Assembly (NCBI GenBank): GCA_030638825.1
Contig: DAOWDU010000031.1
Coordinates: 4,206-68,205 of the forward strand
Length of the DNA: 64,000 nt
Direction: 5' to 3'
Origin: a bacterium
Lineage (GTDB): Bacteria > Patescibacteriota > Minisyncoccia > JAHIHE01 > JAGLIN01
Position 1 is the first letter of the stretch; each line of letters opens with the position of its first letter. The notes beneath the pieces were generated by a model that saw only the letters and a program-made list of their open reading frames with translations, ran no database searches and had not been told where the DNA came from. Made by a program: the position numbers and the translations under genes. Of this stretch, positions 32,657-37,077 are shown in pieces.

Positions 32657-32875
32657 TCAAAAAACCCTGCTTTACACAGAGTTTCTTGATGTAATTCTGA
32701 TTGCTATCCAAAGTTGACTATTACCAGTATAGCAGATTTAAAGATCCTATCAATAGCACTAATATTTTTCTGCTCGTTGAAATTTAATTTCCCTTTTTTC
32801 ATTTCACAATATTGTTGTGAAGTGAAAAAAAAGAAAAAAGAGAGAAAAAATTGTGCGGTCTGTGGTCTTTGTTTT

Positions 32876-33397
32876 CTACTCCAACTTAAACATGGCAGTA
32901 GAATTAACAAACTTCACGAAAGTTAAAGTTTGTCCAGACGAAAGCGTGATACTCTCATTCTTTTGAAGATCAGCAGTCCATCTAATAAAGATGGAATTCC
33001 TTTTCAAATCTTTATAAGAAACATAAAAATCTGTTCCTGGAATCTCGACTGCCGGTTCTCTCAGCACCACAAACTCCTCATGATGGCAAGCCCTGTCAAT
33101 AGACAGATTAATCTCTCCTGAATCGGAGAAATTAAGGAACTTTATTACAGTTCCCTTGTCTGTTATATAAGACTCGCCCAGTCTTATAAGATGAGGACCA
33201 TGGCTGATCCTCACTGAGTCCACTTTACCAAAATTTTCAAAGTAATCTTCAGTTCTTATCTGAAGAATATATCCTTCGGGCAACTCATCCTCTGTGATGA
33301 ATTCGGTCTCAGTGGCCTTCTCGTAATATGTCGTGGCAAGCACGAACGCTATTATGAAAAACATAGCGGTAAAAAATATTGCATTGTACTTGTTCAT
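32876..33397 (-). CDS. Hypothetical membrane-anchored protein (N-terminal TM), antisense-oriented inside the atp operon
   Basis: It is 173 aa. An AGGTGA RBS sits 7 nt upstream. Its flanks are duplicated around 36733-36909. Confidence 0.5.
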   Translation of the reverse strand: MNKYNAIFFTAMFFIIAFVLATTYYEKATETEFITEDELPEGYILQIRTEDYFENFGKVDSVRISHGPHLIRLGESYITDKGTVIKFLNFSDSGEINLSIDRACHHEEFVVLREPAVEIPGTDFYVSYKDLKRNSIFIRWTADLQKNESITLSSGQTLTFVKFVNSTAMFKLE

Positions 33398-33651
33398 AAA
33401 TAATCACCTATCTATATTCCTAATCAGAAGTTCGGCTAAGCCATTGAATCTTCTTCATTTTTAGGACAGTAAGCTAATCGTAATTTTATTATAATCAACT
33501 TACTGCCCTGAAGAATAATTTTTCTCTCTTTTTTCAAAGAACTCGGCGTTAATTCTATCCCTTATAATAAACAACAGAATTAAACGCACTGATTACGCTA
33601 TGTTTAGCATAACGGGAAATTGTATCATAAATTCATAAACCTGTCAAGACT

Positions 33652-34569
33652 ATGCAATCCACCCAGCAAATTAGAAGACAAATCCAGTCAACAAAAAATA
33701 CCTCCCAAATTACAAAGGCAATGGAGATGGTTTCGGCTGCGAAGATGAGAAAAAGTCAGGAGGCCGCTTTGATGGCGAGACCTTACGCCGAAGGAGCGTT
33801 GCATATTTTGGAAAATGTGAGTGAGTCAATTGAACCGAGGAAGCATATTTTGTTGGAAAGAAGAGAAACGAAAAATGTCTGCCTTTTTGTTGTTACTTCT
33901 GACAAAGGATTGTGTGGCGGACTAAACAGCGGCGTTATTAAAGAAGCATCAAAGATAATCAAAGAAAATGAAGCGAGAAATATAAAAGTAAGCATCGTCG
34001 CCATCGGCAAAAAAGCGGAAAGTTATTTTAAGAAAACAAAAAATGATGTCATCGCAATTTTCAACGGCATTGGCGATTCAGTGGAACTGAAAGAAACTTT
34101 GCCCATTTCAAAATTACTGATAACCGATTTTAGAGATAAAAAATTTGACAAAGTGATGGCGATTTACACTAATTTCGTTTCCACTTTAAAGCAGGACACA
34201 AGAGTCAAAACTATTCTGCCAATTACAAGAAGAAGCTTGGAAGAAACGATAGAAGAAATAGAAGATATTATTCCGAAAGACAGTAAAGACGGAAATGGCA
34301 ATAATAATTTAGAATACAAATTTGAACCATCTTCCAGCGAGGTTTTATGCAAACTGCTCCCAAACCTAATTGAAATCCAGTCTTATCACATTATCTTAGA
34401 ATCCAACGCCTCCGAACATAGCGCCAGAATGGTCGCAATGAAAACTGCCACAGACAGCGCGCGGGATATGCTGGAAGATTTGAATTTGTCGTATAATTAT
34501 ATTAGACAACAGAAGATCACACAGGAGATTAGCGAGATTTCAGCGGGGGTAGCGGCGCAGGAGGGATAG
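33652..34569 (+). CDS. atpG: F0F1 ATP synthase subunit gamma
   Basis: The conserved gamma C-terminus ITQEISEI..GA.A is present. Confidence 0.9.
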   Translation: MQSTQQIRRQIQSTKNTSQITKAMEMVSAAKMRKSQEAALMARPYAEGALHILENVSESIEPRKHILLERRETKNVCLFVVTSDKGLCGGLNSGVIKEASKIIKENEARNIKVSIVAIGKKAESYFKKTKNDVIAIFNGIGDSVELKETLPISKLLITDFRDKKFDKVMAIYTNFVSTLKQDTRVKTILPITRRSLEETIEEIEDIIPKDSKDGNGNNNLEYKFEPSSSEVLCKLLPNLIEIQSYHIILESNASEHSARMVAMKTATDSARDMLEDLNLSYNYIRQQKITQEISEISAGVAAQEG

Positions 34570-34731
34570 TTAAAAGTTCATAAAGTTATAAAGTTCATAA
34601 AGTTGACGAATTAATTACTTTTTACTTTATAAACTTTATAACTTTCTACTAATCCTGTACTTTGAAAATCTAAAAATTGAGTTTTGGAAAAGCATTTGAA
34701 ATGCTTTAAAAAAACATAAGGAGGGTATTAA

Positions 34732-34977
34732 TTGAGAATAAAAAATAATGCAGAAAGAATAATAGAAAGAATGGGACTAACACTAATAGGCAATATTAGT
34801 ATTAAAGGAATAGAAATAACAGAAAAAGAAATAGGGTCTTTAATATTCAAATATGGTAACTATTCTTTTTTTATGGATTCAAGCACATATATGGTTTATG
34901 GAATTAGACCAGGAAAAATGAAAAGAATAGGAAAGCTTGTTGTTTCGGAAAGCAATCATCTAGGAATAGAAAGATAA
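34732..34977 (+). CDS. Hypothetical 81-aa protein (TTG start) inserted between atpG and atpD
   Basis: GGAGGG lies 7 nt upstream of TTG. There is no recognised domain. Confidence 0.35.
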   Translation: MRIKNNAERIIERMGLTLIGNISIKGIEITEKEIGSLIFKYGNYSFFMDSSTYMVYGIRPGKMKRIGKLVVSESNHLGIER

Positions 34978-35051
34978 AAATTTCTATTTCTTATTTTTCC
35001 AAACCCCAATTTTAAAAACTTGTTAAAATGTTTAAATGTTAATATGTTAAA

Positions 35052-36434
35052 ATGAGTATTATGAACACAGGAAAAATTATTCAAATTATCGGCGCGGTTG
35101 TTGATGTGGAATTTCCAGATCAATTGCCAGCGCTCTATAACGCGATCACAACAAAAACAGCAGACGGAAAAGAATTAACTTTAGAAACCGTCCAGCATTT
35201 GGGAGCAAACAGAGTGCGGACCGTTTCTATGAGTTCAACAGATGGACTGCAAAGAGGAGCGGAAGTAGAAGATACCGGCTCCCCTATTTCTATGCCCGTC
35301 GGCGAAGAAGTTTTGGGACGGATGTTTGATGTGCTCGGCAATCCGATTGACGAAATAAAAGACGGAAAAACCGCGAAAAAAAGATTGCCAATTCATCGCG
35401 AAGCGCCAAAATTTATAGATCAATCAACGAAAACAGAGATTTTTGAAACGGGAATAAAAGTAATTGACCTTATCGCTCCTTTCACTAAAGGCGGAAAGGT
35501 AGGATTATTCGGTGGCGCTGGAGTCGGAAAAACCGTTTTAATTCAGGAGCTGATTAGAAATATCGCCACCGAACACGGTGGCTATTCCGTTTTTGCTGGT
35601 GTGGGAGAAAGAACAAGAGAAGGAAATGATTTATATCATGAAATGAAAGAAAGTGGCGTTTTGAAAAAAACCGCGATGGTTTTCGGGCAAATGAACGAAG
35701 TGCCAGGCGCCAGACAAAGGGTCGCGCTTTCCGGACTTACTATTGCTGAAAATTTTCGGGATGAAATGGGAAAAGATGTTTTGCTTTTTATTGATAATAT
35801 TTTCAGATTTACTCAAGCTGGTTCCGAAGTCTCCGCGCTTCTTGGAAGAATGCCTTCCGCGGTCGGCTATCAGCCGACTCTCGCCGAAGAAATGGGAGAA
35901 CTACAAGAAAGAATTACTTCCACAAATAAAGGTTCTATAACTTCCGTTCAGGCGGTCTATGTCCCAGCTGACGACTTGACCGACCCCGCGCCAGCAACAA
36001 CCTTCTCTCATCTTGATTCAACGGTGGTTTTAGCAAGGTCTCTCGTAGAACTTGGAATTTATCCCGCAGTTGATCCATTAGAATCAACTTCTTCCGTTTT
36101 AGATCCAAATATAGTCGGCAAAGATCATTACAACACCGCCCGCGAGGTTCAGAAAATTTTGCAGAGATATAAAGATTTGCAAGATATTATCGCTATTCTA
36201 GGAATGGAAGAATTATCTGACGAAGACAAACTCACCGTCTCCCGCGCTCGTAAAATTCAAAAATTTCTATCTCAACCATTTTTTGTTGCTGAGGTTTTCA
36301 CTGGAACTTCTGGAAAATATGTCTCTCTGGCAGATACAATTAAAGGTTTCCAAGAAATTTTAGAAGGCAAGCATGATGAGAGAAATGAGAATGATTTTTA
36401 TATGAAAGGCGGGATTGAGGAGATTGGGAAATAA
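35052..36434 (+). CDS. atpD: F0F1 ATP synthase subunit beta
   Basis: [10 protein letters not shown]-loop and a DELSDED motif are present. Confidence 0.95.
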
Positions 36435-36732
36435 AAACAACGAGGGTTCCATAGTCTCCGCAGAGCTGTGGAACCCAGAATGCAAGGATTGCAAATGCGG
36501 TGCCACAGCCTAACTCCGCTACGGCTCCGTTTCGGACTACGGCACCGTCATTCCGTCACCTCACCTCAAACCAACAAAAAACAGCTCTTTTAAAAAAACT
36601 GTTCTTCTGAACTTTGAAATTTAATTTCCCTTTTTTCATTTCACAATTCTGTCATCTTGAGCAATGTCGTCCTAAACCTGTCGAAGAATTGTCAAAGGAT
36701 TGTGGAGTGAAAAAAAGAAAAAAGAAAAAAAT

Positions 36733-36909
36733 TTACTTAAGATCTGGCATGCTCATAATGCAATAAGCACATCCGCATTTAGAGCAATTGCCACCCCATG
36801 TTTGTTCTCCATTTAGGATGGATTCGTATATTCTCACTTCAAACATCTCGCTTGCCTCGCAATAAGGACAAGTAGTCTTTGCATCAATAATAACTGGCAT
36901 AAAATCCAT
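36733..36909 (-). CDS. Small zinc-ribbon protein (58 aa; CPYC ... CSKCGCAYC), antisense-oriented inside the atp operon
   Basis: A GGAGGTGA RBS lies 5 nt upstream of the ATG. The track ORF was trimmed because its alternative start falls inside the SD. Flanks are shared with 32876-33397. Confidence 0.5.
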   Translation of the reverse strand: MDFMPVIIDAKTTCPYCEASEMFEVRIYESILNGEQTWGGNCSKCGCAYCIMSMPDLK

Positions 36910-37077
36910 TTTATTCACCTCCTACTAATATAAATTATTACGATTAACATAAAAAGTAATTCTTTTCCTTTTTTCAAAGAACCCCGCAATCAATCTTATT
37001 TCTTTTTTAAATAAAACCAATCACATCGTTTACGCTATTTTTAGCATAACACCGCATTCTATCATAACTTTAAACTT

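Follow-up and report, generated by a model that had tools for sequence, protein, structure and literature searches.

Two antisense gene cassettes were identified inside the F1Fo ATP synthase (atp) operon of a Candidatus Pacebacteria member of the candidate phyla radiation (CPR; Patescibacteria), one at the atpA–atpG junction (AG, cassette A) and the other at the atpD–atpC junction (DC, cassette B). The 64-kb stretch of DNA that was analyzed (the window) is near-identical to contig JAGLOM010000010 of GCA_023138945.1. Each cassette constitutes a complete predicted antisense transcription unit, comprising a promoter, a 5′ leader, a Shine–Dalgarno (SD) sequence and open reading frame (ORF), a long A/U hairpin (HP1), and an intrinsic terminator. 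The cassettes probably represent autonomous, moron-like antisense expression slots, consisting of two paralogous frames that are reloaded with different cargo genes by homologous recombination and kept alike by gene conversion. Two cassettes of the same architecture after atpA and atpD had been described in the original prediction; all the parts it described were present, and the observation was real. The operon has a chromosomal context, flanked by alaS, prmC, and similar genes.

The duplication of the flanks was evident on both sides of the cargo. The 34-nt core of the left flank, TTGAAATTTAATTTCCCTTTTTTCATTTCACAAT, occurs exactly at 32777-32810 and 36614-36647; no other site in the window matched at three or fewer mismatches, and none of 100 shuffles yielded a match. 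The core pairs with the downstream TTGTGAAGTGAAAAAAA tract as originally proposed, forming in copy A a 17-bp stem with a ΔG of −20.2 kcal/mol (z = −4.2). In copy B, a 52-nt insert (36648-36699) separates the two arms. This insert is a dispersed repeat, as had been claimed, because its first 20 nt have two relatives elsewhere in the window (2258 and 53870, with 3 mismatches each). On the right, the segment TTACGCTATnTTTAGCATAAC was found at 33593-33613 and 37030-37050 and had no third copy in the 64 kb (approximately zero expected by chance). Approximately 130 nt of the right flank were alignable at approximately 68% identity, including perfectly identical islands.

The right flank contains a predicted sigma-70 promoter directed toward the cargo. 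In a scan of the whole window, 13 sites agreed with the consensus at 11 or more of 12 positions, and the extended −10 dinucleotide TG was present only in the two cassette promoters; the consensus was also matched by the atp operon promoter and by a site upstream of a cobalamin riboswitch. Within 10 kb, the three sites scoring 11/12 were the atp operon promoter 5′ of atpB and the two minus-strand cassette sites. Without exception, the 11 cassettes that were examined first, from the window and related contigs, shared TTGACA, TGnTAnnnT, and a spacer length of exactly 17 nt. In the −10 region, the TG, the TA, and the final T were invariant while the middle positions drifted, and the invariant positions were exactly those required by sigma-70. 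In two loci with local sequence change or rearrangement (L036 and L037), the promoter was retained as TGGTATGAT, as read from the sequences. Orthologous promoter-plus-leader modules were 81–91% identical, whereas the synonymous sites of the atp genes of the same genomes were at or near saturation (proportion of synonymous differences of 0.68–0.85 between the window and L006). The non-coding frame is thus conserved well above the synonymous-site level and is under strong constraint.

Downstream of the promoter, a leader of approximately 90 nt folds into three stem-loops: SL1 (8–9 bp) at the predicted 5′ end, the longer hairpin SL2 (16–19 bp), and SL3, which sits within the invariant GUUCUUUGAAAAAAGAGAG; the invariant GUUCUUUGAAAAAAG stands at the close of the leader. 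The fold was strand-specific. The leader of cassette A had −27.6 kcal/mol in the cargo sense vs. −13.5 kcal/mol in the atp sense, and that of cassette B had −21.3 vs. −4.9 kcal/mol. The nine leader copies lacking a loop insert ranged from −17 to −28 kcal/mol in the cargo sense and from −3 to −13.5 kcal/mol in the atp sense, and two DC leaders of the L006 lineage, which carry a 78-nt loop insert, gave −45.9 and −36.3 kcal/mol, respectively. The gap between strands was approximately 8–20 kcal/mol, with 6–13 G-U pairs per fold. In an alignment of seven leader sequences, 98.1% of the cells were paired in the cargo sense, compared with 73.1% in the atp sense and 49–56% in controls with slid partners. 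SL1 was also considered as a DNA palindrome or operator; it is favored as an RNA element because its C-A and A-C mismatches on the plus strand become G-U pairs on the minus strand. A covariance model of the leader matched every frame at 47–103 bits. An additional match at 4950-5034 (21 bits) was regarded as noise, as it overlaps a gene start and another repeat. No Rfam family matched the leader, whether at the gathering threshold or with E relaxed to 5, only noise matches were obtained on the A/U hairpin, and no family fitted any part of the cassettes.

On the other side of the cargo, the unit is closed by a predicted minus-strand-specific intrinsic terminator, a hairpin followed by U6, that is separate from HP1. 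The terminator of cassette A had −20.3 kcal/mol (z = −3.7) in the minus sense and −8.5 kcal/mol (z = −0.3) in the plus sense; the corresponding values for cassette B were −16.8 (z = −3.8) and −3.6 kcal/mol (z = −0.3). HP1 was itself tried as a bidirectional intrinsic terminator and was rejected, as a U-tail is absent in both orientations. Pairing between the purine tract of the 5′ untranslated region (UTR) and the pyrimidine tract of the 3′ UTR was perfect in copy A (17/17), but it is of low complexity and was not clearly kept in copy B.

Two side observations were made on these hairpins and their surroundings. Small palindromic dispersed repeats have repeatedly inserted into the apical loops of HP1 and SL2 while the stems stayed intact (HP1 in window 36648-36699, L004_AG, L006_DC, L036_AG, and L037_AG; SL2 in L006_DC, L036_AG, and L036_DC), which suggests that the dispersed repeats target hairpin loops or that loops tolerate inserts. 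A second promoter-like site (TTGATA-16-TATACT with TG, 32726-32753, minus strand) lies between HP1_A and the terminator abutting atpA and could give rise to an antisense small RNA of 60–70 nt. The equivalent position in L029 (approximately 9700-9840) has TTGACG-16-TATACT, and L004_DC and L012_DC have the motif TGnTACTAT.

The cargo ORFs are real genes, as indicated by ratios of nonsynonymous to synonymous substitution (dN/dS) of 0.13–0.33, i.e., purifying selection. The atp genes had ratios of 0.02–0.06; the cargo thus evolves faster, and the non-coding frame is better conserved than the cargo it encloses. Both minus-strand genes of the original prediction, encoding 173 and 58 aa, stood with their SD sequences; the start of the shorter gene was corrected to the ATG at 36909 behind GGAGGTG, instead of the GTG at 36918 that defines the 61-aa ORF of the ORF table. 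The proposed membrane anchoring of the 173-aa protein (X) agreed with a helix predicted at residues 3–29, which is followed by a beta-rich domain. No significant family match was obtained in Pfam, PADLOC, or PHROGs for X, the zinc-ribbon-like protein (Zn), or two further cargo proteins of relatives, Y and Z. The AlphaFold model of X (predicted local distance difference test score of 75) was beta-rich and had no fold match in the PDB at E < 0.06, and a profile search with X against 1.8 billion representatives retrieved only four clusters at 50% identity. Z has a hydrophobic N-terminus, while Y, V, and W look cytosolic. Several of the cargo ORFan families are probably highly expressed, and X and Z would be membrane-anchored.

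The features of the two cassettes and of the operon are given in Table 1. The identities of the atp genes were assigned from the ORF table, Pfam, and the Pfam labels for the called genes of locus L001.

Table 1. Coordinates of cassette and operon features in the 64-kb window.
Feature	Coordinates	Strand	Remarks
Cassette A promoter (predicted), TTGACA-17-TACAAT, extended −10 TG	33619-33647	-	−35 box 5 nt from atpG ATG
Cassette A leader, three stem-loops	33524-33613	-	SL1 33593-33612; long SL2 ~33545-33587; SL3 (GUUCUUUGAAAAAAGAGAG) ~33524-33544; covariance model 102.6 bits
SD of cargo X, AGGTGA	33404-33409	-	Read from sequence
Cargo X, 173 aa, N-terminal transmembrane helix and beta-rich domain	32876-33397	-	dN/dS 0.22–0.33 vs. 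orthologues
HP1_A, long A/U hairpin	32777-32850	.	34-nt core, TTGTGAAGTGAAAAAAAA arm, and polypurine tract reaching cargo boundary
T2_A, predicted intrinsic terminator, 14-bp hairpin and U6 in cargo-sense RNA	32657-32689	-	Abuts atpA stop codon
Cassette B promoter (predicted), TTGACA-17-TAGAAT, extended −10 TG	37056-37084	-	−35 box 37079-37084 overlaps atpC start ATG-TCA-A
Cassette B leader	36964-37050	-	SL1 37030-37049; SL2 type-2 sequence variant, then SL3; covariance model 83 bits
Cargo Zn, 58 aa, four-cysteine zinc-ribbon-like	36733-36909	-	dN/dS 0.13–0.28; SD GGAGGTG 36917-36923
HP1_B	36614-36731	.	Arms 36625-36647 and 36700-36723; loop split by 52-nt repeat insert 36648-36699
T2_B, predicted intrinsic terminator GAAGAACAGUUUUUUUAAAAGAGCUGUUUUUU	36576-36607	-	Kept in L004, L006, L011, L012, L029
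atpB	28586-29326	+	F1Fo operon
atpE	29436-29669	+	F1Fo operon
atpF	30104-30598	+	F1Fo operon
atpH	30608-30994	+	F1Fo operon
atpA	31163-32656	+	F1Fo operon
atpG	33652-34569	+	F1Fo operon
atpD	35052-36434	+	F1Fo operon
atpC	37078-37500	+	F1Fo operon

Related Pacebacteria contigs were reached via homologues of the cargo proteins and AtpG, and one JGI contig was reached via a DNA pattern scan. The loci examined included the window, L004, L006/L020/L014, L010–L012, L029, and L036–L041 (Table 2). The frame was found in seven related lineages, within one subclade of these ultra-small Pacebacteria, at AG, DC, or both, with at least six unrelated cargo families. Two of the families (Zn and Z) occurred at both sites, and Y, V, and W occurred once each. 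The distant X of L036 was assigned using hhalign (92.6% probability), and the two Z copies of L037 are 60% identical to each other and are both distant relatives of the Z of L006. The operons of L038, L039, and L040 are compact (atpA–atpG spacers of 226, 9, and 39 nt and atpD–atpC spacers of 12, 24, and 31 nt, respectively), and they had no antisense gene and no match to the covariance model.

Table 2. Cargo at the two atp junctions in the window and related loci.
Locus	AG	DC
Window	X (173 aa)	Zn (58 aa)
L004	X (169 aa)	Y (139 aa)
L006 / L020 / L014	X (160 aa)	Z (114 aa)
L036	Distant X (185 aa)	V (89 aa)
L037	Z (135 aa)	Z (121 aa)
L011	Zn (60 aa)	No module (putative deletion scar)
L012	No module	Zn (57 aa)
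L010	Beyond contig	Zn (58 aa)
L029	No module	Sixth cargo, W, cut by contig end
L041	No module	Beyond contig
L038, L039, L040	No module, compact	No module, compact

The exchange of cargo between the two sites was traced to a breakpoint. The AG copy of L011 and the DC copy of L012 share 80–96% identity from the terminator through HP1 and the ORF to the cargo UTR; at TTTTCAAAGAAC, the L011 copy switches to an AG-type leader with 76–96% identity to that of window_AG, giving a clean right-hand breakpoint. Judged from this alignment, cargo exchange is explained by homologous recombination inside the conserved frame, with its right breakpoint at TTTTCAAAGAAC. The two left arms of the window are identical to each other, whereas orthologous copies differ; the two copies of L006 share lineage-private substitutions; and a type-1 SL2/leader occurs at both sites in L006 and L036, with an identical loop insert in both L036 copies. 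The two frames of one genome are thus probably homogenized by gene conversion (concerted evolution). Window and L010 are identical over 36899-37972 (approximately 1.07 kb comprising the leader, atpC, and beyond), and 16 differences were found within 166 nt of the Zn ORF (36733-36898); this points to recombination mosaicism on a fine scale within the population. These two sequences also differ at a second cluster of positions, in prmC (38325-38487).

The unit would operate in the minus-strand order of sigma-70 extended −10 promoter, ~90-nt leader, cargo-specific 5′ UTR with a strong SD, small ORF, HP1, and terminator. The promoter would fire, and the leader would stabilize or attenuate the cargo mRNA. 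Read-through from the atp genes would run into the antisense transcription, and its RNA would pair with the cargo mRNA; this could uncouple atpG and atpC from atpA and atpD. Cargo replacement would take place by homologous recombination at the conserved ends of the frame, among copies in one genome as well as across strains.

An alternative is that the frames are primarily regulators of ATP synthase, in which antisense transcription and the hairpin gate gamma/epsilon against alpha/beta (as an excludon or attenuator) and the ORFs are passengers. The modules stand exactly at the alpha-to-gamma and beta-to-epsilon transitions, and the antisense −35 box adjoins the start of atpG and, at atpC, overlaps the start codon, where it is the complement of TGTCAA in ATG-TCA-A. 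Sense and antisense transcription should collide, since no atp-sense terminator was found in the cassettes, and the non-coding frame is more strongly conserved than the cargo. However, one module is missing in L011, L012, and L029/L041 (AG in the last two) and both are missing in L038–L040, the operons of which are compact; atpD, which lies downstream of cassette A, would be attenuated as well; and the purifying selection on the cargo implies that the ORFs are not mere spacers. In L004, L036, and L037, repeat inserts displace the AG −35 box by 100–170 nt from atpG; thus, the frame is positioned relative to the cargo and not to atpG. The patchy presence of the module also indicates that tuning of gamma/epsilon is not its main purpose, and a primary regulatory function is unlikely, while an indirect effect on atp expression via head-on transcription is plausible. 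The original prediction of a duplicated regulatory module controlling atpG and atpC was accordingly not supported in that form: the conserved promoter points away from both genes, the RNA structures form only in the antisense transcript, repeats intervene in the three relatives named above, and the module is missing from one or both junctions in close relatives. Its interpretation was re-oriented because the conserved parts of the flanks belong to the minus strand, i.e., to the cargo genes. A plus-strand TATCAT was tried as a promoter for atpG/atpC and was rejected; it has no usable −35 box, is not conserved in L036/L037, and is the complement of the minus-strand TGnTA. As a side observation, AtpC starts with MKINL where there is no module and carries an extension of 3–6 residues where there is one (MSTP-KINL, MSSPTN-KINL); the extension (window 37078-37089 compared with L038 8362, L039 8940, and L040 8365) occurs only where the DC module is present or was once present.

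It was also considered whether the cassettes are copies of a mobile element (integron-like, flanked by miniature inverted-repeat transposable elements, or homing), with the hairpin as the recombination site. The architecture of an ORF with an adjoining imperfect hairpin, the same cargo at two sites, and the polypurine/polypyrimidine inverted repeats bracketing the cargo (17/17 complementary) fit such an element, and the synonymous divergence of X, which is below that of the neighboring atp genes (atpG), hints at lateral spread or exchange. However, the frame was found only at the two atp junctions. Among 185,579 GTDB representative genomes, the right-flank pattern was found in one Paceibacterota MAG (metagenome-assembled genome), at its two atp sites, the remainder being chance matches; the frame and cargo proteins X and Zn were absent from the viral contigs of IMG/VR; and neither the covariance model nor DNA patterns detected the frame outside the atp junctions in the window or loci. 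A genome-wide repeat family was likewise rejected, as scans of GTDB, JGI metagenomes, and IMG/VR gave only atp-site copies and chance matches in coding regions or unrelated taxa. No recombinase Pfam domain indicating an integrase or transposase was present among the called genes of 15 loci, up to 10 kb. The inverted repeats at the cassettes are low-complexity purine/pyrimidine tracts only, and no target-site duplication was observed at the borders when filled and empty sites were compared. Inspection of HP1 and the borders revealed no attC cores (RYYYAAC/GTTRRRY); the stem is near-perfect A/U, and the conserved border is GTTCTTTGAAA. The right junction is an ordinary homology breakpoint, the empty sites L012_AG and L038 have no footprint, and the empty DC site of L011, which still holds ATGTCAAC and approximately 25 nt of the promoter spacer, looks like a deletion scar. 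A mobile-element origin is thus very unlikely. Of the original proposal of a mobile promoter/terminator cassette that has captured different genes, the shared frame with differing genes held for the window copies, the seven lineages, and the six cargo families, while mobility in the transposon sense did not, with no recombinase, terminal inverted repeat, or target-site duplication seen.

The right flank might instead be a stand-alone small RNA gene (SL1–SL2 followed by UUCUUU), with the ORF expressed by read-through or from its own promoter. GUUCUUUG begins 3–4 nt after SL2 and resembles a weak terminator, the leader is conserved independently of the cargo, and the lack of an Rfam match would make it a new RNA. 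However, the U-tract is short and stands apart from the stem, only approximately 45 nt separate SL3 from the SD in the Zn cassette, where there is no second promoter, and the cargo genes under selection need a promoter, for which that of the module is the sole strong one. This explanation is considered extremely unlikely. The expression-slot reading can also be extended to a dedicated system in which the leader RNA and the A/U hairpin control the cargo and serve as recombination handles, recombinase-free and integron-like, and in which firing gates gamma/epsilon; an elaboration of this extent is improbable.

Several points weigh against the antisense expression slots as described above. The promoter, transcription start, and terminators are all sequence predictions. 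HP1 showed no difference in stability between the strands (−19.8 and −19.8 kcal/mol in copy A) and has no U-tail, and no role could be assigned to it. The leader shows weak covariation, with one doubly changed pair that did not exceed the shuffle control and many one-sided G-U/A-U/G-C changes; strand asymmetry and G-U wobble therefore carry the case for the leader structure. No function or selective benefit was identified for any cargo. No convincing plus-strand promoter for atpG or atpC was found in the shared flank, and because no atp-sense terminator was found either, atp transcription would most simply read through the cassettes head-on. Finally, the comparators are all metagenome contigs or MAGs, and the statement that the frame occurs nowhere else in the genome covers one incomplete representative MAG and approximately 270 kb of loci.

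The cassettes are not an integron, a transposon, or a known RNA family, and their individual parts (sigma-70 promoter, stem-loops, SD, and intrinsic terminator) are ordinary. Phage morons, a concept of Hendrix and Juhala, are genes with their own promoter and terminator that lie between genes adjacent in related genomes, and they normally bring their own signals. Similar to morons, the cassettes are predicted self-contained promoter–gene–terminator units between genes that are contiguous in L038–L040, and the accessory cargo differs among relatives. Unlike morons, they reside in a cellular housekeeping operon and not in a prophage, are antisense, have a conserved frame that is duplicated and reused, and had no viral relatives among the contigs searched. 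They share with integron cassettes the small, unrelated, swappable ORFs, each followed by an imperfect hairpin, and the shared conserved promoter, but there is no integrase, attI, or attC core, each slot holds one cassette, the promoter is inside the frame, and the junction resembles homologous recombination. In the excludon concept from Listeria, a convergent unit in or overlapping an operon antagonizes the opposite strand through its transcription. The cassettes are likewise convergent transcription units embedded in an operon, but they lie in spacers and not over coding sequence, there is no sign of opposed functions of cargo and ATP synthase, and they are known here from sequence. Correia elements, repetitive extragenic palindromes (REP), and bacterial interspersed mosaic elements (BIME) occur in tens to hundreds of genomic copies and enclose no genes. 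The frame resembles them as a conserved, hairpin-forming intergenic sequence present in more than one copy with transcription signals, but it has two copies in one operon, each enclosing an ORF.

Few gene clusters of bacteria are as conserved and compact as F1Fo operons. In these genome-reduced CPR bacteria, such an essential operon tolerates, and keeps across lineages, two head-on units with strong predicted promoters. The cassettes would provide a natural example of a reusable promoter–leader–terminator frame into which unrelated ORFs are swapped by ordinary recombination, which is relevant to the way in which tiny genomes without classical mobile elements acquire and move accessory genes. 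They also yield a candidate for a new leader RNA motif, together with several ORFan families that may bear on CPR surface biology. If antisense firing modulates the supply of gamma/epsilon, it would be a new way to set ATP synthase subunit ratios, and if the extended slot reading is true, the expression of variable accessory proteins would be coupled to ATP synthase assembly in CPR bacteria. A literature search on antisense genes in atp operons or insertions in CPR atp operons retrieved nothing relevant; as far as we found, neither the arrangement nor its position in an essential operon nor the turnover of cargo has been described.

Other features of the operon and window were observed. The atpG–atpD spacer contains small sense-strand ORFs in the window (34732-34977, plus strand) and in L004 (3624-3854), L036 (7192-7371), L006 (8343-8621), L012 (3334-3594), and L037 (7369-7647). 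They form two recurrent families, one of approximately 59–81 aa with a YG..SFF.D..T..VYG motif and the other of 86–92 aa ending in IWIP.KKE.P, both of which had no Pfam match and were absent from the compact relatives. Arrays with an 8-nt period (ATGTTAAA) were found at 35029-35054, 28457-28490, and 10195-10228, and also 5′ of atpG in L012, L038, and L041; they terminate in TGtTAAAAT approximately 7 nt ahead of the start codon and may be extended −10 promoters producing leaderless or very-short-leader mRNAs for atpD, and for atpG at cassette-free sites. More than 60 direct-repeat families were counted within the 64 kb, and most of the atp spacers (29670-30103, 30995-31162, and 36441-36510) and many other spacers hold members of dispersed repeats (GTCATTGCGAGGA..., TTTCTACCC...GGTT..., and others). 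The cobalamin riboswitch (55683-55852, minus strand) matched Rfam RF00174 at 33.2 bits, slightly over the gathering score, and has a TTGACA-17-TAGAAT promoter upstream at 55895.

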